This document shows, in pieces, positions 1-37,277 of a stretch of DNA of 37,277 nucleotides. Below the pieces are notes generated by a model. That model searched no databases, had not been told where the DNA came from, and saw nothing but the letters and a program-made list of their open reading frames with translations. This DNA comes from a virus: the IMG/VR virus record IMGVR_UViG_3300042876_000891, positions 1 through 37,277 of that record. The stretch is one strand, 5' to 3'. The position numbers and the translations under genes were made by a program. Numbering within the stretch: position 1 is the first letter of the stretch; each line of letters begins with the position of its first letter.

Positions 1-127
1 TCTCGGGGAAGGTGACGCGGCCGCGGGGCGAGGACTGCCCGGGCTGCTCGAGCTGGACCTGCCCGGCTACTTGCGCTGCTTCTCGAAGAACTGCTCGGCC
101 GCCTGCGAAACCCTGTCGCTGAGCTCG
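1..127. repeat. Terminal direct repeat copy 1 (identical to 37151..37277); end overlap that closes the sequence into a circle
   Basis: Bases 1-127 match 37151-37277 base for base. The repeat lies inside coding sequence rather than at a non-coding genome end. Confidence 0.95.
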
Positions 128-2971
128 TCGCGGCTGACCTTCTCGCCGGCCCGCAGCACCGTCACGCCGCCGATCTTCAGCCCGCGATGCGCGGTCGGCT
201 GCTTCGGCTGCGACTCCCCGCTGCTTGTGGGCTTCGACGAGGGCGTCTGCTGCGTCATAGGTGGCTCCGAGTCCGTATCCGAAGGTGACGTTGAGCGGCT
301 CGCCATCCTCGTGTGTGATAGTAGCGCACAAGGCAGCGAGGTCGTCAATGAACGCCTGCAAGGCCTTGGGATCGTTGGACCGGGCCGCGAACTCGTCCCC
401 CGAGAGGTGCGCGAAGTCGAACTCGGCGCCGTAGGCCTTCGCCGCAGCGCGCGCCACGCCGATGAGCATCGCGTCGCCAACCTCGACGCCGAGCGTCTCG
501 TTGACCGCCCGGAGCCCGTTGAGGTCGATCGAGGCGACGTGCGCCGCCTTGTCGAGCTTCTCCAGGAGGAAGAACCCCTCCCCCGTCAGCGCGCCGTTCC
601 CGTCCAGGAAGGCGGCCTTGAAGGCGGCCTCGTCCGGCGGGAGCAGCTCCCGGACCTCGGCCGGGACGTCCGCGGCAGCGAGCTCCTCCGCGGAGAGCTT
701 CATCTCGGCCGCGGTCTCGACCTTCACGCCGAGGGGCTTCGCGCCGCGCAGCGCCCGCTTCCCCGAGCCCTCGAGCCCCTTCTTCGTGCCGGCGTGGGTC
801 GCCCCCGCCTCCTCGAGCGTGGCTCCCACCGCGCCGGTGAGCGCGATCCCCTCCGGCATGGCGGCCTGCGCCTGCTCGAGGATGCGCGCCAGCTCCGCCT
901 GGTCCGCCACGCGGACGGCGAAGTCGCCGCCCACCTTGGCGACGAGTGGGGCGGCGCCCCGCAGGGCGCGCGCCGCCGCTCGGTACAGCAGGTTGCCGGT
1001 CGTGTGGCCGCTCTTGTTGGCCCACTTCGTGCCCTCGACCGAGATGTGCGCGACGAGCGGCCGCGCCGGGTCCGCCGGCAGCGCCTCGAAGGCCCGCCGG
1101 TTCAAGGTGCCGGAGTTGTGGTCGGTGAAGAAGAGCGCCTCCTTCCCGGCCCGGTCGAGCCCGGTGAGGTGCTTCGTCAGGAGCTCCGAGGAGCGGGTGA
1201 ACGGCAGCCCCGCCGGCGTGAGCCCGCCGAGCGCCTCGTTCTCCACCTGCAGCCCCATCGTCTCGTAGAACGACCAGGCGTCGCCCTTGCCGAGCCGCTT
1301 CGCCATGGTGCGCGAGAAGGCGCTCCAGAGCGCGGCGTTCGTCCGGGCGATGTCCGGGTCCTGCCCGGCCGCCTCGAGCTTGGCGGCGACGTCGGCGAGG
1401 ACGCGCTGCTCGGGCGTCGCCTCGACCGGCTTCGCCTCCGCCTTCGCGCTCTCGTCGGCGAGCTGCTTCGCCTCCTTCTCGACCTTCTCGGCCTCCCGGA
1501 GCGTGAGCGCGTCGCCGACGCGCAGGTCCGGGACGAGCCCCTCGTAGCCCTTCAACGGCGCGACGTTCACCGCGAAGTCGTGGGTCGGGATCGTGACCTC
1601 GACGCCCGGGTTCCCGGCGGCCTCCTCGAGCTGGCGCGCGACGGCGGGCATCCGCTGGGCGACCCAGGCGAGATCCTTGTCGTTCGCCTGGAAGAGCTCG
1701 AGCAGCTTCTCGGCCGGCGCGGTGACCGACTCGATCGCCCCGCCCTGCCGCGCCTGGATGTTCTGGACGTGCTCGCGGGCGACGTCCGGCAGGCTCATCA
1801 CGGTCGAGGACTCGGTCGCCGCCTCGCCGAGGGCGGTGAAGAACTGCGCTCGCTCGCGCGCGTGCGACGCCTCGGTGACGTCCGCGCGGACCCCGGCGGC
1901 CACGCCCGGCGCGCCGTAGACGCCGCCGGCGAGCGCGCCCTCGAGGCCGGCCTCGCCGACCCGGCCCCAGTCGATCTGGACGCCCTCCTGGCCGTCGATG
2001 AACTGGCCGCCGAGGATGGTGTTCAGCTCCTGCATCGCCTCGGTGAGCCCCTCCGCCGTCATGCCGCCGGCGAGACGCGCCGCGGCGCGGGCGACCGCGG
2101 CCCGGCCAGTGTTCGAGCGCAGGGCGGTCCGGAAGACGTCCCGAGCGACCCCGCCCTTCATCAGGGCCTTCAGCCCGGGGATCTGGAATACCAGGTCGAG
2201 CGGGAGGACCTCGAGCGCGCCGTTCGCCGCGCCCACGATGCTGGACGCGAGGAAGGCCTGCTCGTGGGTGACGCCAGGGATCTGCATGTACTCCCGGTAG
2301 GCGCTCCCCATCTCGCGCTTGCCGGTGGCGATCGTCATCCCGGCCCGCCCGCCGACCGAGGCGCCGAGCTTCGCGCCGCCGATCATCGCCGGTCCGACCA
2401 GCGTCCCGCCGGTCCCCACCGCCGCGCCGAGGCCTGCGACCCCGGCCCCGATCATAGCGCCGGCCGCCGCCGTCGGGCCTGCCTCGAGCGCCGAGGCGCC
2501 CATCATCGGCGCCGACTCCGCCGCCGCGCGCAGGCCGCGCGCCACGATGCCGGTCTTCGGGCGGGGCACCGAGGCGGCGAGCTGCTCCAGGCGCTCGGCC
2601 TCCGCGATCTCCTCCGGGGTCGCCTCGCCGATCGCCTGCCGGTACCCGATGATGGCGATCCGGTCGTTCAGGCGCCCGCGGTAGGCCGCCTCGCCGATCC
2701 CGCCGGTGAGCATCGCGCCCGAGCCGCCGAAGACGTCCTCGAGGAAGGAGAGCCCCTTCACGTCGCCGGCGACCTGCGCCGCGCGCGCGGGGTCGGCGAG
2801 CAGCTCCTGCGTCGTCGGGGCGTCCTTCGTGAGCTCGGTCCAGCTCGGGGCGGCCGGAGCCGCCGGCTTCGGCTGGGAGGCGACGAGCGCCTGCGCCGCC
2901 GAGACCCCTGCCGCCCGCTCCCGGTCCTCCGAGCTCGGCGCGTCCGCCGCGAGCTCGTCCCAGGGGTTCAC
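1..2971 (-). CDS. N-terminal part of a giant virion-associated (ejection/polyvalent-type) protein. The ORF continues across the junction into 37150..33534.
   Basis: GTG at 2971 overlaps the upstream TGA (GTGA). My hand translation of this minus frame (codon tops congruent to 1 mod 3) from 2971 to 1 found no stop. The protein text is plausible: MNPWDELAADAPSSEDRERAAG..., a Gly-rich hydrophobic stretch GAMIGAGVAGLGAAVGTGGTLVGPAMIGGAKLGASVGG (2348-2461), then two GGDEF-like domains. The ORF track omits it because it runs off the window edge. Confidence 0.75.
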   Translation of the reverse strand, partial: MNPWDELAADAPSSEDRERAAGVSAAQALVASQPKPAAPAAPSWTELTKDAPTTQELLADPARAAQVAGDVKGLSFLEDVFGGSGAMLTGGIGEAAYRGRLNDRIAIIGYRQAIGEATPEEIAEAERLEQLAASVPRPKTGIVARGLRAAAESAPMMGASALEAGPTAAAGAMIGAGVAGLGAAVGTGGTLVGPAMIGGAKLGASVGGRAGMTIATGKREMGSAYREYMQIPGVTHEQAFLASSIVGAANGALEVLPLDLVFQIPGLKALMKGGVARDVFRTALRSNTGRAAVARAAARLAGGMTAEGLTEAMQELNTILGGQFIDGQEGVQIDWGRVGEAGLEGALAGGVYGAPGVAAGVRADVTEASHARERAQFFTALGEAATESSTVMSLPDVAREHVQNIQARQGGAIESVTAPAEKLLELFQANDKDLAWVAQRMPAVARQLEEAAGNPGVEVTIPTHDFAVNVAPLKGYEGLVPDLRVGDALTLREAEKVEKEAKQLADESAKAEAKPVEATPEQRVLADVAAKLEAAGQDPDIARTNAALWSAFSRTMAKRLGKGDAWSFYETMGLQVENEALGGLTPAGLPFTRSSELLTKHLTGLDRAGKEALFFTDHNSGTLNRRAFEALPADPARPLVAHISVEGTKWANKSGHTTGNLLYRAAARALRGAAPLVAKVGGDFAVRVADQAELARILEQAQAAMPEGIALTGAVGATLEEAGATHAGTKKGLEGSGKRALRGAKPLGVKVETAAEMKLSAEELAAADVPAEVRELLPPDEAAFKAAFLDGNGALTGEGFFLLEKLDKAAHVASIDLNGLRAVNETLGVEVGDAMLIGVARAAAKAYGAEFDFAHLSGDEFAARSNDPKALQAFIDDLAALCATITHEDGEPLNVTFGYGLGATYDAADALVEAHKQRGVAAEAADRASRAEDRRRDGAAGRREGQPRRAQRQGFAGGRAVLREAAQVAGQVQLEQPGQSSPRGRVTFPE
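67..258 (-). CDS. 63-aa ORF nested in an alternative frame inside the linker of the giant ORF (hypothetical protein)
   Basis: ATG at 258 is preceded by GGAG (268-265) with a 6-nt spacer, and the TAG stop is at 67-69. By hand count 60 of 63 codon third positions are G or C. Text: MTQQTPSSKPTSSGESQPKQPTAHRGLKIGGVTVLRAGEKVSRDELSDRVSQAAEQFFEKQRK. Confidence 0.6.
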   Translation of the reverse strand: MTQQTPSSKPTSSGESQPKQPTAHRGLKIGGVTVLRAGEKVSRDELSDRVSQAAEQFFEKQRK

Positions 2972-4719
2972 CGGCCACCCCGCAGGTACGCGCGGACCGC
3001 CATGTCGGCGATCGCCGTCGAGCTGGAGTCTTTCCCAGCCTTCTGGAGCGCCGCCTTGATCCGGGGGCCCTGCGTCTGGATGAGGTCGAACACCTGGAAG
3101 GCCTCCGGCTTGGTGAGCACGCGATCGCCGGCGCTGCGCTTCCAGCCGGTGGTGATGTCGCCCTCCCACGCGCTGAACTCGGTCATCGTCGTCTTCTGGG
3201 CCTCGGGGGTGAGCCCCTTCCCGCGGCGGAGCGTGCTGTCGCGGACCGCCGTCGAGTAGTCGCTCGGGATCCCGGAGTCCTTCGCCTCGGCCTTCCACGC
3301 CTTGGCGTTGACGAGCTTGTCGACGAGCGGGTTCACGATCGCGGTCTGCTCGGCCGGGGTGAGCGGCGCGGCGGAGCCCTTCCCGGCCTTCGCGCGCGCG
3401 GCGTTGTAGAGCGCCCGGTTCACCTCGCGCTGGACGTAGCCCACGGCGAAGGCGTCGTCCTCGGCGTCCTTCCCGGCGACGTGCAGCCCGTGGAAGACGA
3501 GCCTCGTGTTCGTCTCCTCCTGGGGGCCGAAGAAGGACGTGTACTTCACCGAGCTGGGGCCCTCGAGCTTCAGCGTCCGCTGCAGGTCGAGGAAGTGCTT
3601 CGCGTCCGGGACGGCCAGGCGGCTGAAGTACGACGCGAGGTCGGCGTTCTTGAACGCCTCGGGGTTGGTCGTGGCGAGGTTCGTCAGCTCGGCGTAGGCC
3701 TTCAGGTCCGTCTCGACGGGCTTCTTGTCCGGGCGGGTGCTCTCGACCAGGCGGATCGACCACTGGAGGGTCTCGCTCGACACGGTCCCGGGCGCGGGGA
3801 TGAGCTTCGTGGAGAGCTGGCGGCCGCCCGCCTGGATGTACGCGCCGAGCAGGGTGTTGCGCGCGGCCTCGTCGGCCTCCCGGAACTGGTTCGCTGCGGC
3901 GGACTTCTCGCCGTGCTCGAACTCCCGCACCTGCCCCTCGAGGACGCGCTTCCAGTCGGCGCGCTGGTCCGGAGAGAGGCGATCGAGCCCCTGCCCGCTC
4001 TCGAGCTGCCCGATGAGCCGGCCCGCCTCGAGGACGTCCGCGGTGGACCGGATGCCGGCGAGCCGCCGCGCCTCGAGCGGCCTCACCTGCTGCGCGAACT
4101 CGATGATGCCGAGCCGCTGCTCCTTCTCGGCCGGCTCGAACGCCGTCGTCTGGACGACCAGGTTGTGGGCCTTCAGGAAGTTTCCCGCCCGGATGCTGTT
4201 CGCGACCGCCTCGTCGAGCGTCTTCCGCTGGTCGGCGAGCATCCCGCGCAGCTGCGCCTGCTCGAGCCGCGCGCGGCGCCCCCGGATCTCCTCGGCCACG
4301 CCGGACTCGAACTCGGACTTCCATCCGCTGCCGACCGTCATCTCCCCGCCGGCCTGCGCGACCAGATCCTTCGCCGCCTTCGCGTGTAGGGCCCCCGCGA
4401 CCTCCCACGTCGGGATGGACCCCTCGCCGTTGAGGCGGCGCTGCACCTCGCTGTCGAGTGAGCCGATGTCGTCCCCGAGCCGCTCGCGGACGAAGGCCTT
4501 GTCCAGGTAGGGCGAGGCCCCGATCTTCGTCTCGACGTCGGCGAGCCCGGCCGCGACCTTCGCGTGCGCGGCCTCGAGCTGCGTCCGAACGAGCGAGCGG
4601 CCGAACTCGGCGAGCCCGGTCTCGATGGTCTGCGCGGCCTGCCGCTGCGCCTGGTCGACGCGGGCGAACGAGGCGCTCGAGTCCTGGACCGACGCGTACT
4701 CGATCTCGGGGAGCCTCAC
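2968..4719 (-). CDS. Putative internal virion/ejection protein (583 aa), in the position of the T7 gp15-type protein
   Basis: Plausible helical protein text with a GTG start at 4719. It sits between a small membrane-anchored protein and the giant protein, downstream of the tail-tubular-like genes. The function is inferred from position only. Confidence 0.55.
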   Translation of the reverse strand: MRLPEIEYASVQDSSASFARVDQAQRQAAQTIETGLAEFGRSLVRTQLEAAHAKVAAGLADVETKIGASPYLDKAFVRERLGDDIGSLDSEVQRRLNGEGSIPTWEVAGALHAKAAKDLVAQAGGEMTVGSGWKSEFESGVAEEIRGRRARLEQAQLRGMLADQRKTLDEAVANSIRAGNFLKAHNLVVQTTAFEPAEKEQRLGIIEFAQQVRPLEARRLAGIRSTADVLEAGRLIGQLESGQGLDRLSPDQRADWKRVLEGQVREFEHGEKSAAANQFREADEAARNTLLGAYIQAGGRQLSTKLIPAPGTVSSETLQWSIRLVESTRPDKKPVETDLKAYAELTNLATTNPEAFKNADLASYFSRLAVPDAKHFLDLQRTLKLEGPSSVKYTSFFGPQEETNTRLVFHGLHVAGKDAEDDAFAVGYVQREVNRALYNAARAKAGKGSAAPLTPAEQTAIVNPLVDKLVNAKAWKAEAKDSGIPSDYSTAVRDSTLRRGKGLTPEAQKTTMTEFSAWEGDITTGWKRSAGDRVLTKPEAFQVFDLIQTQGPRIKAALQKAGKDSSSTAIADMAVRAYLRGGR

Positions 4720-4722
4720 CGG

Positions 4723-5097
4723 CTACCTCCACCAGTTGTTGTTCTTCGCGAAGTCGAAGAAGGAGCCGGCGCCCCCGGTCAGGAAGGAGAACTTCGCCGC
4801 GGTCTCGGTCGCCTGCGCCTGCGCCATCCCGGCGTCGAGCATCCACTTCTCCTGGCGGCCGAACTCGGTCTCCATGTCGCTGAGGTCGCGCTGCAGCCCC
4901 TGGCTCTCGAACTCGATCCCGGACGCGGCGCCCCGGGCCTGCGCCTCGCCGAGCGTCGCCTGGTGCTGAAGCCGGAAGCGCCGGAGCTGCTCGCGCGTCT
5001 CGGCCCGCTGCTGGTCGGCCTGCTTGTTGCCGAGCCACCAGGAGGCTCCCGCGCTGGCGAGCCCGACTCCGAGTTGTGCAGCGAAGAGCGCGCTCAT
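4723..5097 (-). CDS. Small putative internal virion protein with a hydrophobic N-terminus (124 aa)
   Basis: N-terminus MSALFAAQLGVGLASAGASWWLG looks like a transmembrane segment, followed by a charged helical region. The gene is tightly packed in the tail/ejection gene block. Confidence 0.5.
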   Translation of the reverse strand: MSALFAAQLGVGLASAGASWWLGNKQADQQRAETREQLRRFRLQHQATLGEAQARGAASGIEFESQGLQRDLSDMETEFGRQEKWMLDAGMAQAQATETAAKFSFLTGGAGSFFDFAKNNNWWR

Positions 5098-5107
5098 CGT
5101 CCCCTCC

Positions 5108-28196: not shown

Positions 28197-28526
28197 ATGC
28201 GCTACGTCTACGTCTCCGGCCCGATCTCCTCTGACCCGGAGGGCCACGCCGTCGCCGCGATGGGCGAGGCCGCGAGGCTGATGGACGCGGGGCTGCACCC
28301 TTTCGTTCCCCACCTCTCGGTCTGGTGGGAGAAGCACCACCCCCGCGCCTACGAGTCCTGGATGGCGTGGGACTTCGCCTGGCTGAAGCGGTGCGACGCG
28401 ATCCTGCGCCTTCCCGGCCACTCGCCGGGGGCCGATCGCGAGATGGCGATGGCGCGCGAGCTCGGGCTCCCGGCGTTCCACTCCGCCGCCGACGTGATCG
28501 CCTGGGCGCAGGGAGCCGCGACGTGA
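28197..28526 (+). CDS. DUF4406-like / nucleoside 2-deoxyribosyltransferase-superfamily protein (109 aa)
   Basis: MRYVYVSGPISSDPEG...A..L...G..PFVPH........W...D...L..CDAILRLPGHS.GADREMAMARELGLP follows the DUF4406 layout. Confidence 0.5.
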   Translation: MRYVYVSGPISSDPEGHAVAAMGEAARLMDAGLHPFVPHLSVWWEKHHPRAYESWMAWDFAWLKRCDAILRLPGHSPGADREMAMARELGLPAFHSAADVIAWAQGAAT

Positions 28527-33533: not shown

Positions 33534-36500
33534 CTACTCCCACTTCGACGGGTTGCGGAAGAGCAGGTCCTGGACCGGCTCCTCGAGCTCGCCCGAGAGC
33601 AGCTGGTCGGTGAAGAGTCCGAGGTTCCAGAGTCCCCCGGTCGGCAGCTGCATCGTCGAGCCGACCAGGTCGACCACCGCCTTCGCGTCGGACTTGCCCA
33701 GGTCGTCGCCCTTCACGACCTTCCCGGCCGCGAGCGCGCTCCGATAGATCGTGTCGAGCCACGGCGCTCCGCGGGGGGGGCGCCCCTGAACGCCGACCGA
33801 GACGACGTCCCCGGCGAACGGAACCGTGCTCACCGGGAGGAGCGCCATCTCAAGCGAGAGCCGCTTTGCCACGTCGTCCGCGTCCTCGTCGTCGCCGACC
33901 CCGTTCATCAGGAGATGCTCGGCGACGACCGGAAGGAAGACGAGCCAAAGAAACCGCGCAGCGTACGTCTGGAGCGCCTTCGCGCCCTTCTCGCTGGTCC
34001 GCTCGGAAAGCAGGTTGTAGAGCACGCTCCGGTAGCTGAACATCACCGTGAAGAACTTCCGGAGCTCCCCGCCCCGCTGCACCGCCGCCAGGTCCTTCGC
34101 CCCGCCGCCGGTCTGGGTCATCGACACGACCGAGTCGGCGTAGGCGTTCGGGTTCGGGTGCCCCTCCTCGAGGGCCTGCTCCTTCGCCGCATACCAGGTG
34201 ATCGCGTTCACGCTCTTTTGGACCAGCATGATCGGCATCGCGCCGAACTCGACGACCCTCCGCCTCAGCCCACCGAGTTCGGTGAAGCTCGACTCGAGCG
34301 CGGTGAAGAGCTCGCGCGCGTCGCGGTCGAGCTGCTTGTCGATGAACTTGAACTCCGGGCTCTGCTCCCGGACCTCGGCCCAGCCCTCGCGCAGGAACTT
34401 GCGCAGGCCGGAGACCATGTGCCGACGCCGGAGCTCCTTCCCGGACGTGAAGAGCCCGAGCGCCTGCTTCACGCCCGTCGGGATCTTGCCGAAGAGGAGG
34501 ACGACCGAGGATCCGAAGCGGAGGTTGCGGAAGATGCGCTCGTACCGGAGGAGCGGCTCGGTCGTGTTCCCGTCCGCCGCGATGTTCTCCAGCCAGGGCC
34601 GGAAGCTGTTGAAGTACTCGCGGCCGATCCCCTCGGTGATCGCCTCCCGGACGTCCCCCTGCTGCAGGAGCCGGTCGACGCCGCGGATCGCCTCGTAGTG
34701 CGTCAGGTAGTGGATGACCTTGTCGAGGTGCGCCGGAACGACATCGAGGCTCAGCTCGAGCGGGCTCATGTCGCGGCCGCGGCTCTTCGTGAAGCCGTGC
34801 TCAACGACGGGCGCGAAGAAGTTCGACTCCCAGAGGGCGTCCGCGCGTTCCGCGAGTTGCAGGCCGAGGTAGCTCATCCGGCGCGACTTCACGATCGGGT
34901 AGTAGCCGCCGGAGAGCTTCCGTCCGCCGGGGAGCTGAAAGGGGGTCGCCTCGACCCTCGGCGGCGGCGAGCCGACATGCCGCTCCGAAAGCTCCTTCAT
35001 CGCCGGCCAGAGGGAGTCGACCGTCTTCCAGATGTGCTCGACGATCGCGAGGTCGCCGTCGTCCAGGAGCTGGTCCAGGCGGGCGAGAACCTCCTCGCGC
35101 TTCCAGCCGTAGCCGGCGAGCAGGCGGTCGGCGTTGCCGGCGTTGCCCAGGTTGAGCGCGACCGTGAGCACGTTCCGCCGGGTGAGCGTGACCATCTTCC
35201 CAGCCTTCGGCGAGTACAGGAACCCGACCTTCTCGGCGTAGCGCTTCCGGCGCGCGAGGGTGAGCTCCTGGAAGGGCTTCATCAGCGCGCCGTGGACCGC
35301 CTCGTTCATCTGGCTGCGCGCGTTCTGGGCGTCGCGCAGCGGTTGGAAGAGGAGCGAGTGGGCGAGGCCGGCCGTCTTCCCGCCGTCCAGGATCCGGGCG
35401 ATGAACTCGACCTTCTTCATCTCGGCGTCGGCGGAGCGCAGCCACTCCTTCGCCTTGTCGAGCGCGCCGAGGTCGCCCGGGGTCGGCTTCGCCGCCGTCC
35501 CGAGGTTCGTCCGGACGTGCTCCGAGAGATCAGCCGCCGTGCGCGCAAGGTCGCGCCGCTCCTTCCCGAGGAGAAGCTTCCCCTTCAGCCTGGCCATCGC
35601 CTCGATGTTCGCGGCCGCGGCCTCGACGCCCTGGAGCTCCTCGAGCGTCATCGCCCGCCAGGACTTCGGCTCGGAGAGGTCCTTCAGCGCCGGCGAGACC
35701 GTGTCGCCCTCGGCCTCCATCTCGGCGACGTACTTCGCGAGCGAGGCGCGCTTGCGGACCGCCTTGCCGCTCTCCTTGCGGAGCTGGATGCCGTCGATGA
35801 GGGCGTCCAGCGCCTCGACGTAGCGCTGCCCGGCCTTGCCGATCCGGCGCCGGGTGCCGACGTCCTCGAAGCCGCGGAGGTAGGCGCGGATCCGCTCGAC
35901 CTCCTCCTTCGCCTTCGCCGTCTCGGCTGCCATGAAGTGGTTCCAGATCTGGCGCCACTTCGCGTCGTAGGCCTCCGCCCACTTCTTCGCAGCGATCGCC
36001 TTCCCGAACTCGGCCGCCGACGTCGCCTCCGCGCGCCGGTACTTCCCCGGCTGCAGCTCGAGGTCGGTCATCCGGGCGACGCGCTCCTTCGCGCCGCGGC
36101 GGAGAGCCTCGACGGAGACCCGGCCGGGCCCGGCGGCGAGCCGCTTCCCGACCACGTCCAGCTCGCGGCGCATCCCGACGACCAGGCCCTCGACGTCGTG
36201 GACCGCCTTCACCGACATCTTCCCGAGCTGGGCGAGCTGCCCCTCCGGGTAGCGCTCGGCCATCCGGCGCTCGGTCTCCGCCTTCACCCACGTCTCGCGG
36301 CTCGGCGTCGTCACCAGCGCCTGGACGAGCTCGTGGCCGTCCTTGAAGCCGAAGTAGGGGGCGAGGTCCTCGGCCGAGAAGCCACCCTCCTTCGCGAGGA
36401 AGGGGGCGAGCCGGCGCAGCCCGCGCGCGTCCGTGAGCCCCTCGAGCGACGCCGGGTCCAGCTGGGCGCCGGCGATCGCCTCGTCGACCACCTGGCCGTC

Positions 36501-37277
36501 GAGCCGCTCGCCGGTCCGCAGGAACTCGCGGAGGTTGAAGACGGGGTCGAGCGTGGAGAGCTCCTGGACGTCGTCCCGGACCGCGTCCCGCTCCTCGCCG
36601 AGCTGGCGCCGGAGTCCCTCGAGCGACCGCTGCTCGACGGCGGCCTGCGCGTCGCGCGCGGCCCCCTGCCAGCCGGACTGGTAGGTCGCGAACGCCTCCG
36701 GCGTCATCCCGGCCTCCTCGGCCGTGGCGAAGGCGGGCACGATCCCCGCCTCCTGGCGCGCCTGCGCGATCTCGGCCTCGGTGGCGAGCAGCCGGTCCAT
36801 CACGCCGCGGACCTCGTCGGTCAGCTCGACGTTGAGCCCGCGGAGGGTCCGGTAGACGTGGAGAAGCCACGCCTTCATCGACTCGAAGGCCTGGACGAGC
36901 CCCGGCGCCGGCGCGCGCCCCTCGCGCAGGTAGGCCTCGAAGCCGCGGGCGAAGCGCTCGAGCTGCTCGGCGGTGAACTCGCCGGAGAGCGGGACGCCGA
37001 GCCACTCGTGGATCGTGGCGAGGTCGGCCTGCAGCTCGGGGCTCTGCTCGGCGGTCTTCCGGAGCGTCTCGAGGAAGACGTGGCCCGACTCGTGGATGAA
37101 CGTCGAGAGGTTGGCCGACCCGGTCAGGGTGACCTTGAACCACGCGCGGTTCTCGGGGAAGGTGACGCGGCCGCGGGGCGAGGACTGCCCGGGCTGCTCG
37201 AGCTGGACCTGCCCGGCTACTTGCGCTGCTTCTCGAAGAACTGCTCGGCCGCCTGCGAAACCCTGTCGCTGAGCTCG
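33534..37277 (-). CDS. C-terminal part of the same giant virion-associated protein, including an HExxH zincin-like motif. 37151..37277 duplicates 1..127.
   Basis: The track ORF 33534..36878 stays open upstream to the window end in the same frame. Upstream text is ...FPENRAWFKVTLTGSANLSTFIHESGHVFLETLRKTAEQ...EQLERFARGFEAYLREGRAPAPGLVQAFESMKAWLL. Third-position GC there is near 100 percent. No ATG, GTG or TTG precedes the HExxH segment, so it must be read from upstream. Joined ORF is 6,588 nt, or 2,195 aa. Confidence 0.8.
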   Translation of the reverse strand, partial: RAQRQGFAGGRAVLREAAQVAGQVQLEQPGQSSPRGRVTFPENRAWFKVTLTGSANLSTFIHESGHVFLETLRKTAEQSPELQADLATIHEWLGVPLSGEFTAEQLERFARGFEAYLREGRAPAPGLVQAFESMKAWLLHVYRTLRGLNVELTDEVRGVMDRLLATEAEIAQARQEAGIVPAFATAEEAGMTPEAFATYQSGWQGAARDAQAAVEQRSLEGLRRQLGEERDAVRDDVQELSTLDPVFNLREFLRTGERLDGQVVDEAIAGAQLDPASLEGLTDARGLRRLAPFLAKEGGFSAEDLAPYFGFKDGHELVQALVTTPSRETWVKAETERRMAERYPEGQLAQLGKMSVKAVHDVEGLVVGMRRELDVVGKRLAAGPGRVSVEALRRGAKERVARMTDLELQPGKYRRAEATSAAEFGKAIAAKKWAEAYDAKWRQIWNHFMAAETAKAKEEVERIRAYLRGFEDVGTRRRIGKAGQRYVEALDALIDGIQLRKESGKAVRKRASLAKYVAEMEAEGDTVSPALKDLSEPKSWRAMTLEELQGVEAAAANIEAMARLKGKLLLGKERRDLARTAADLSEHVRTNLGTAAKPTPGDLGALDKAKEWLRSADAEMKKVEFIARILDGGKTAGLAHSLLFQPLRDAQNARSQMNEAVHGALMKPFQELTLARRKRYAEKVGFLYSPKAGKMVTLTRRNVLTVALNLGNAGNADRLLAGYGWKREEVLARLDQLLDDGDLAIVEHIWKTVDSLWPAMKELSERHVGSPPPRVEATPFQLPGGRKLSGGYYPIVKSRRMSYLGLQLAERADALWESNFFAPVVEHGFTKSRGRDMSPLELSLDVVPAHLDKVIHYLTHYEAIRGVDRLLQQGDVREAITEGIGREYFNSFRPWLENIAADGNTTEPLLRYERIFRNLRFGSSVVLLFGKIPTGVKQALGLFTSGKELRRRHMVSGLRKFLREGWAEVREQSPEFKFIDKQLDRDARELFTALESSFTELGGLRRRVVEFGAMPIMLVQKSVNAITWYAAKEQALEEGHPNPNAYADSVVSMTQTGGGAKDLAAVQRGGELRKFFTVMFSYRSVLYNLLSERTSEKGAKALQTYAARFLWLVFLPVVAEHLLMNGVGDDEDADDVAKRLSLEMALLPVSTVPFAGDVVSVGVQGRPPRGAPWLDTIYRSALAAGKVVKGDDLGKSDAKAVVDLVGSTMQLPTGGLWNLGLFTDQLLSGELEEPVQDLLFRNPSKWE
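37151..37277. repeat. Terminal direct repeat copy 2 (redundant with 1..127)
   Basis: Identical to 1-127. The unique replicon length is therefore 37,150 bp. Confidence 0.95.

Follow-up and report, generated by a model that had tools for sequence, protein, structure and literature searches.

In phage lambda, Rz1 is a small gene of about 60 codons embedded in the +1 frame of Rz. Both a ribosome-binding site and a start codon of its own are present, yet standard gene callers overlook it. The Rz1 product is the o-spanin lipoprotein, with a signal peptide and a lipobox Cys, and works together with the product of the host gene. Programmed frameshifting is another way in which phage structural genes use two frames, as in G/GT of lambda and 10A/10B of T7. 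Morons of the HK97/lambda type, reportedly described by Juhala et al. in 2000, are said to be promoter-gene-terminator units inserted in the late operons of temperate phages. Here we describe a 63-codon open reading frame (ORF) that is nested in the largest gene of a phage. The window, i.e. the whole stretch of DNA that was analysed, is the IMG/VR virus record IMGVR_UViG_3300042876_000891 with a length of 37,277 nucleotides (nt). The surrounding gene, referred to as the giant gene, is predicted to encode an internal virion (ejection) protein of the IVP-D type, like Bbp10 of phage BPP-1.

In hepadnaviruses the polymerase spacer lies over the S gene and is, in Pavesi's model, the novel frame over a pre-existing gene (PMC8227390, section 8). 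The ancestral frame of such an overlap is judged by phylogenetic distribution and codon usage (PMC8227390). The part of a study of the E. coli pangenome that is considered here describes protein segments remodelled out of frame by indels within one gene family (PMC8788219).

The nested ORF and the part of the giant protein that lies over it are located as follows.

67..258, minus strand: nested ORF; 63 codons, ATG at 258-256, TAG at 69-67, +1 frame of the giant gene.
26..217, minus strand: giant-protein linker, about amino acids (aa) 919-982, VAAEAADRASRAEDRRRDGAAGRREGQPRRAQRQGFAGGRAVLREAAQVAGQVQLEQPGQSSP; mostly an off-frame reading of the nested gene.

The nested ORF is complete, with its own start and stop, and lies fully inside another gene on the same strand and in a different frame. 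Its 63-aa product is MTQQTPSSKPTSSGESQPKQPTAHRGLKIGGVTVLRAGEKVSRDELSDRVSQAAEQFFEKQRK. The original prediction, made from the letters of the window, had given an ATG at 258 behind a GGAG with a 6-nt spacer, a TAG at 67-69 and 63 codons, and these coordinates proved exact. Over the nested interval the G+C content of third codon positions (GC3) amounts to 60/63 for the small frame, compared with 31/63 for the giant and 39/63 for the remaining frame. The same 60/63 had been reported before, and an earlier hand count of about 28/58 for the giant frame agrees with the computed value. Outside the interval the giant frame has a mean GC3 of 0.97. With G+C contents of about 0.70, 0.50 and 0.95 at codon positions 1, 2 and 3 (GC1, GC2 and GC3), the small frame carries the same signature as every real gene of the genome.

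For comparison we used 63-codon windows, of which 1952 came from the giant gene and 4169 from ten further genes. A GC3 of at least 0.95 in the +1 frame was seen in 0/1952 of the other giant-gene windows and in 0/4169 windows of the ten genes (maximum 0.889). No own-frame GC3 of 0.6 or less occurred in the same set (minima 0.857 in the giant gene and 0.762 in the ten other genes). The frame signature is far beyond chance. A switch of codon bias exactly at both borders had been claimed. This holds for the 3' border, where the giant frame is back to 100% GC3 at the codon directly after the TAG, as had also been stated. The 5' border is less distinct, with GC3 of the giant frame dropping from about position 373. 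It should be noted that the giant frame is open across the small ORF automatically, because its first codon positions are the G/C third positions of the small ORF. Its openness is evidence of nothing. The linker read in the giant frame is rich in Arg, Gly and Ala and includes peptides such as EAAQVAGQVQLEQPGQSSPR. The last helix of the preceding GGDEF-like domain (YDAADALVEAHKQRG) reaches past the nested ATG and overlaps some 14 codons of the small ORF.

When high-GC relatives were scanned for comparable islands of switched frame, only the boundaries of upstream genes turned up. A candidate second copy at window 28382..28284 was rejected as a chance off-frame match.

Such a pattern could in principle stem from a pair of compensating assembly indels, as the original prediction had considered, or from a small ORF born by overprinting in an old linker. 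The interval lies near the ends of a circular contig, and off-frame ORFs are common in high-GC DNA. Against both explanations, the independent Logan assembly of run SRR26046407 contains a contig (L030, 13,233 bp) that is 100% identical to the window over 6004 nt, nested ORF included, and that passes linearly through the circular junction of the window. The gene neighbouring the giant gene was found in two further sequencing runs. A second phage, L001 (IMG/VR UViG_3300034178_000058, which is metagenome contig Ga0210377_10000464), has a giant gene with 84% nt and 81% aa identity to that of the window. At 3440-3631 it contains a 63-codon +1 ORF with the same ATG, GGAG, TAG and length. The giant frame is open there too, which answers the earlier call to look for stops in a related genome. 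The nested 192 nt of the two phages differ by 31 substitutions and no indels, and a 9-nt indel directly after the TAG preserves the giant frame. Stand-alone homologues of the small protein (see below), together with the genome-typical codon usage, exclude a de novo origin of the small frame. The two-frame stretch is real and reproducible. As far as sequence data allow, the artefact explanation would count as already refuted, and we find either of the two explanations hardly credible at all.

The search for carriers comprised two scans of genome contigs, one of metagenome contigs and three of viral contigs. Matches L024, L025 and L029 are the same contig as L001 and were not counted as further carriers. 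Two scans found no relative among GTDB genomes. The metagenome contig (Ga0210377_10000464, L025) is 39,066 bp long and the IMG/VR viral contig (L001/L024) 34,553 bp; the extra 4.5 kb may be host flanks of an integrated prophage.

Within the nested ORF the two phages share one long stretch of invariant DNA.

63..115, minus strand: two-phage identity run of 53 nt; the small protein's C-terminal helix (VSQAAEQFFEKQRK), the TAG and 4 nt beyond.

It ranks fourth in length among the identity runs of the 6.6-kb giant gene, although the giant frame reads nothing but linker at this place.

Searched with phmmer, a set of 1.84 billion representative proteins yielded two relatives of the small protein. 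One is P0002 (60 aa), with 50% identity over residues 16-63 and an E value of 2.7e-5. The other, P0003 (182 aa, L028 806-1354), consists of three tandem copies of a domain of about 40 residues. The P0002 gene was called as a free-standing one on a high-GC contig of 10.5 kb (L026 902-1282, with P0004), and P0004 (57 aa) is a second paralogue directly upstream of it. Both genes lie within a same-strand run of small genes that is followed by replication-initiator-like and DnaC-like genes, and the locus looks like a phage early region. The nested copy of L001 has 53% aa identity to P0004, and 73% nt identity over 132 nt. Word-indexed protein searches with the small ORF and two profiles gave P0002 and P0004 only, and no copy of the nested product itself. 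The small-protein family is very rare, with five loci among the matches listed in all collections searched.

The alignments to P0002 and P0004 start at nested codon 15-16 or so, about window 213, and define the following segment.

67..213, minus strand: segment homologous to the stand-alone genes; presumed captured fragment of about 150 bp, a multiple of three nucleotides, with its own stop codon.

The start of homology coincides with the end of the last GGDEF-like helix in the giant frame. The Pfam match to the giant protein ends at aa 910, and homology to a relative, L012, ends at aa 909. L012 has the same GGDEF-like-to-zincin architecture with an unrelated single-frame linker of about 190 aa and no nested ORF. 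The relatives resume their alignment to the giant protein only from about RGRVTFPEN. By both of the criteria named above, phylogenetic distribution and codon usage, the small frame is ancestral in 213..67, where the linker of the giant frame appears as the novel reading. We take the small frame as native there because it combines genome-typical GC1, GC2 and GC3 with stand-alone homologues. In 258..217 the roles are reversed, the giant frame being the older and the small frame the novel one. The original prediction had listed a genuine gene overprinted in a tolerant linker as one of its readings. The nested gene is supported, and the direction is the opposite of that proposed, with the small frame the older.

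As the likeliest origin we see a P0004-like gene of which about 150 bp (3n), together with the stop codon, were inserted into the linker. In brief, a piece of a small gene from a phage early region would have been inserted, in the common ancestor of the window phage and L001, into the linker that joins the second GGDEF-like domain to the zincin domain. Most of the ORF and the stop codon would have been retained in the fragment. With a 3n length and nearly all third positions G or C, it could be read through by the giant frame without stops, so that the giant protein would have gained about 50 residues of Arg/Gly/Ala-rich linker with no recoding. The captured ORF is intact in the +1 frame, and its new N-terminus of about 14 codons, its ATG and its GGAG are drawn from the giant gene's own sequence. 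We suggest that the ORF may be expressed as a separate, moron-like 63-aa accessory protein. It would be made from a promoter of its own, used early or in the lysogen, by internal initiation on the late mRNA, or by both. This whole account, i.e. a captured fragment, a read-through linker and a separately expressed small protein, has in our view a better than even chance of being correct.

A mosaic origin, with a P0002-like copy in the window and a P0004-like copy in L001, was considered and dropped, as both nested copies are nearer to P0004 in DNA. At 9 informative columns the window copy agrees with P0002 or the L001 copy with P0004 (e.g. G/N, V/I, L/F), and the opposite is never seen; gene conversion or chance may lie behind this.

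Candidate expression signals of the small ORF are spelled by rare codons of the giant gene. We found three features of this kind.

265..268, minus strand: Shine-Dalgarno-like GGAG; 6-nt spacer (CCACCT) to the ATG, kept in L001.
259..373, minus strand: stretch with abnormal synonymous sites; A/T-ending codons 11/39, against a baseline of 2.9%.
318..348, minus strand: sigma-70-like promoter match, TTGACG(348-343)-N19-TACTAT(323-318); 60 nt before the nested ATG and within GGDEF-like coding sequence.

The giant frame spells the GGAG by the rare Gly codon GGA and the G of GCC. The GGA codons at 280, 274 and 268 make up 3/12 of the giant gene's total. The nested ATG is created by TAT-GAC, and TAT accounts for 3 of the 37 Tyr codons. 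Only 104 of the 2195 codons of the giant gene end in A or T, and 43 of these lie between 373 and 68. The pattern TTGAC-N16-20-TANNNT occurs once on both strands of the 37-kb window, against 0.15 expected, though the promoter consensus of the host may differ. This match contains the giant gene's only ATT, its only ACA and one of its two ACT codons. In L001 both hexamers are unchanged, whereas 4 positions of the spacer differ. The chances seem to us even that a foreign gene was captured out of frame within an essential gene for a virion protein and stayed alive because synonymous sites of this host gene later came to carry a start, a ribosome-binding site and a promoter for it. It would then be a moron inside a gene, with expression independent of the late operon.

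An in-frame ATG at 304-306 on the minus strand, 16 codons upstream of the ATG at 258, was rejected as a start, since L001 lacks it and no Shine-Dalgarno sequence lies at a usable distance. It sits 11 nt after the -10-like hexamer.

The same in-frame capture could also have left a passenger fossil, i.e. a small ORF that is no longer or was never expressed, with the DNA serving as linker only and the signals persisting by chance and short divergence. Several observations weigh against a small ORF that is kept alive, and most of them would fit this alternative. The pairwise substitutions show no clear purifying selection in the small frame. In the two genomes the 31 differences fall 15/10/6 on codon positions 1/2/3 of the small ORF, and the ratio of synonymous to non-synonymous codons between the window and L001 is 6:19 in the small frame and 6:18 in the giant frame. 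The original prediction had asked which frame favours synonymous change, and this pair favours neither. Amino-acid-change and BLOSUM tests on the same pair were not significant. When the 31 differences were placed at random, the small ORF stayed intact in 19% of trials and both frames in 9%. Of the 11 A/T-ending positions in 259..373, 9 still end in A or T in L001, which is about what divergence alone predicts. The promoter-like match has a non-ideal spacer of 19 nt and is not returned by a stricter scan with spacers of 16-18 nt. No terminator-like site was found downstream of the ORF on the minus strand. Only two independent genomes have the arrangement, L001 being the sole second carrier among the matches listed. 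The small protein also falls in no known family, the best Pfam match being DUF5805 with an E value of 0.14.

Other observations speak for an ORF under use. A start-less fragment is not expected to gain an in-frame ATG and a well-spaced GGAG from codons that are nearly absent elsewhere. The single promoter match of the genome lies upstream of the ORF on the correct strand, for which we estimate a chance of about 2e-4 in a 120-nt target. Columns conserved between the stand-alone paralogues are preferentially kept in the nested copies (16/18, against 17/28 of the others; p = 0.038). Finally, the giant-frame linker overlaps one of the gene's four longest invariant runs. Weighing both sides, we regard an unexpressed passenger as unlikely but a serious contender to the separately expressed protein.

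The original prediction had further suggested recoding, with a +1 shift near 260 and a -1 shift at AAG-TAG. In such a scheme the ribosome would shift by +1 near 258-217 and by -1 at AAG-TAG, so that the domain is translated in-line, or would initiate at the ATG at 258 and then shift by -1 at the stop to make the 1230-aa part. It is true that the native frame switches twice while the giant frame offers neither a stop nor a start, that the domain occurs inside a larger protein in P0003, and that the sequence around the TAG is invariant. However, the suggestion found no support from a slippery site, from unusual RNA structure or from Rfam. By eye, no X XXY YYZ heptamer for the -1 return was seen ahead of the TAG in the small frame, in line with the earlier statement that none is visible. 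The one heptamer present, G GGT TTC, belongs to the giant frame and would lead into a junk frame. The candidate region for the +1 shift (CGG GGA) is not conserved in L001. Folding z-scores, computed with shuffles, range from -0.8 to +0.9 around the TAG and the start in both phages, and are +0.91 and -0.19 downstream. The sequence after the TAG diverges in L001 and carries the 9-nt indel. Rfam gave one weak match, far below the gathering score and outside the interval. In addition, an in-line module would have no need of the ATG, GGAG and stop with which the ORF is equipped. From 258 to the HExxH motif the giant frame offers neither ATG nor GTG nor TTG, and it contains no stop upstream; in all relatives the giant gene is one continuous gene. 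The essential C-terminal 1200 residues are therefore most simply made by plain read-through of the linker. Recoding is, in our judgement, very improbable.

The G GGT TTC heptamer, of the canonical -1 slippery type, lies at window 110-116 on the minus strand, inside the invariant run. The -1 frame after it is open for about 550 codons only as a result of GC3, which is probably meaningless.

The small protein had no match in PHROGs, NCBIfam or a PDB sequence search, and a Foldseek search against PDB gave a best E value of 3.9. An AlphaFold2 model predicts a disordered N-terminus, a beta-hairpin at residues 27-35 and a helix at residues 43-62, with a predicted local distance difference test (pLDDT) score of about 90 for residues 30-60. 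A Cys, a signal sequence and a hydrophobic N-terminus are all absent from the product. The tandem paralogues and the triple-repeat relative suggest that the small protein may act as an oligomer.

The window is a circular contig with a unit of 37,150 bp and a GC content of 70.8%; bases 1-127 are repeated at 37151-37277. The giant gene runs on the minus strand across the contig junction, from GTG 2971 to a stop at 33536-33534. It is the largest gene of the window phage, with 2195 codons. Its parts and the repeated end are located as follows.

1..2971, minus strand: giant gene, 5' part; Bbp10 / IVP-D homologue, GTG 2971, with a GTGA overlap with the stop of the upstream gene.
33534..37150, minus strand: giant gene, 3' part; zincin HESGH at 37094-37080, stop at 33536-33534.
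37151..37277, no strand: terminal overlap; copy of 1-127, repeats the last 20 codons and the TAG of the nested ORF.
218..547, minus strand: second GGDEF-like domain (SGDEF), giant aa 809-918; Pfam PF00990 with an E value of 7.3e-07 over residues 809-910.

The nested interval had been said to straddle the contig ends; only the giant gene crosses the junction, and the interval does not. That annotation pipelines would miss the small ORF was borne out, as gene calling on the Logan contig gave the 2195-aa product only.

PHROG and tblastn matches in the window include an integrase, a terminase, a portal, a major head protein, tubular tail proteins and a tail fibre. By these matches the phage is classified as a temperate podovirus of the epsilon15/BPP-1 type. 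With tblastn, giant aa 973-2182 match bbp10 of BPP-1 with 30% identity (E 2e-102), and the neighbouring genes fit the order of tubular tail genes, internal virion protein genes, giant gene and tail fibre. The giant gene thus shows both marks of an IVP-D / T7 gp16-like gene, i.e. homology over the C-terminal ~1200 aa and gene order. Bbp10 is IVP-D, short for internal virion protein D, the equivalent of T7 gp16 (PMC4819975 Table 2), and its residues 700-1000 served as a seed of a zincin family (PMC3650047).

The stop-free giant frame spans 5107 to 33536 on the minus strand, i.e. 2907 codons. A single gene of this length was rejected, as a 583-aa gene at 4719..2968 in another frame holds the GC3 signal there. 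The 712 extra open codons upstream of GTG 2971 (window 2968-5107, minus strand) are an off-frame shadow of this Bbp11-like gene. A naive longest-ORF call at the giant frame would yield a 2907-codon chimera.

Two degenerate GGDEF-like domains, GGDF and then SGDEF, are found at giant aa ~630-918 (window 218-1100, minus strand). The N-terminus of the giant protein has a weak LPD22 match at aa 38-88. The GGDEF-like part is common to the giant protein and L012, and Bbp10 of BPP-1 aligns from the zincin onward only. Giant aa 781-810 (window 541-634, minus strand) are 100% identical in the two phages, with 2 nt differences in 90 nt. The identity runs of 47 and 41 nt in this region indicate that synonymous sites are unusually conserved at the start of the second GGDEF-like region too.

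For annotation, the largest gene of the phage is one gene of 2195 codons, not 2907 codons and not two genes, with a second, unannotated ORF inside. The locus would be a clear case of an overlap in which the small nested gene is the ancestral frame and the linker of a big protein the novel one. It illustrates how a high GC3 can render an out-of-frame insertion of 3n length in a gene harmless. This may be a route for multidomain virion proteins to gain linkers and for phages to hide accessory genes. If the ORF is indeed a moron inside a gene, one capture step gave an ejection protein a new linker of about 50 residues, i.e. overprinting in reverse. A change of TAT to TAC at 259-257 would be silent in the giant gene and would remove the nested ATG, thereby separating the function of the small protein from the cost of the overlap.

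Compared with the systems introduced above, the nested ORF shares features with each. As in lambda G/GT and T7 10A/10B, the coding signal changes frame inside a late structural gene. Unlike in these genes, there is no slippery site or stimulatory element, the ribosome would have to shift twice, and the segment carries a start and a stop of its own. As far as the cited part of the E. coli study goes, the cases resemble ours in that a protein segment is the coding sequence of another protein in a different frame; they differ in that here a different gene was apparently inserted and the original frame is still an intact ORF. The resemblance to the hepadnavirus spacer over S lies in a tolerant linker of a multidomain protein that is the novel frame, in both cases inferred from codon usage in sliding windows. 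The hepadnavirus case concerns a eukaryotic reverse-transcribing virus, an overlap of about 1200 nt and elongation, whereas here it would be insertion into a continuous gene of a double-stranded DNA phage.

Like Rz1 in Rz, the nested ORF has about 60 codons, is fully embedded in the +1 frame, has its own GGAG resembling a ribosome-binding site and its own start, and is overlooked by gene callers. Unlike Rz1, its product lacks a Cys and a signal, and the host gene encodes an internal virion protein and not a spanin, with no evident link between the two products. The nested ORF also differs from Rz1 in having stand-alone homologues and a putative promoter of its own. Like a moron, it would be a small accessory gene, probably of foreign origin, among the late structural genes of a temperate phage (with an integrase), and a sigma-70-like promoter match lies upstream. 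Unlike morons, it lies inside a coding sequence, has no terminator and has the same base composition as the genome, and its start, ribosome-binding site and promoter-like signals are written in the codons of the host gene.

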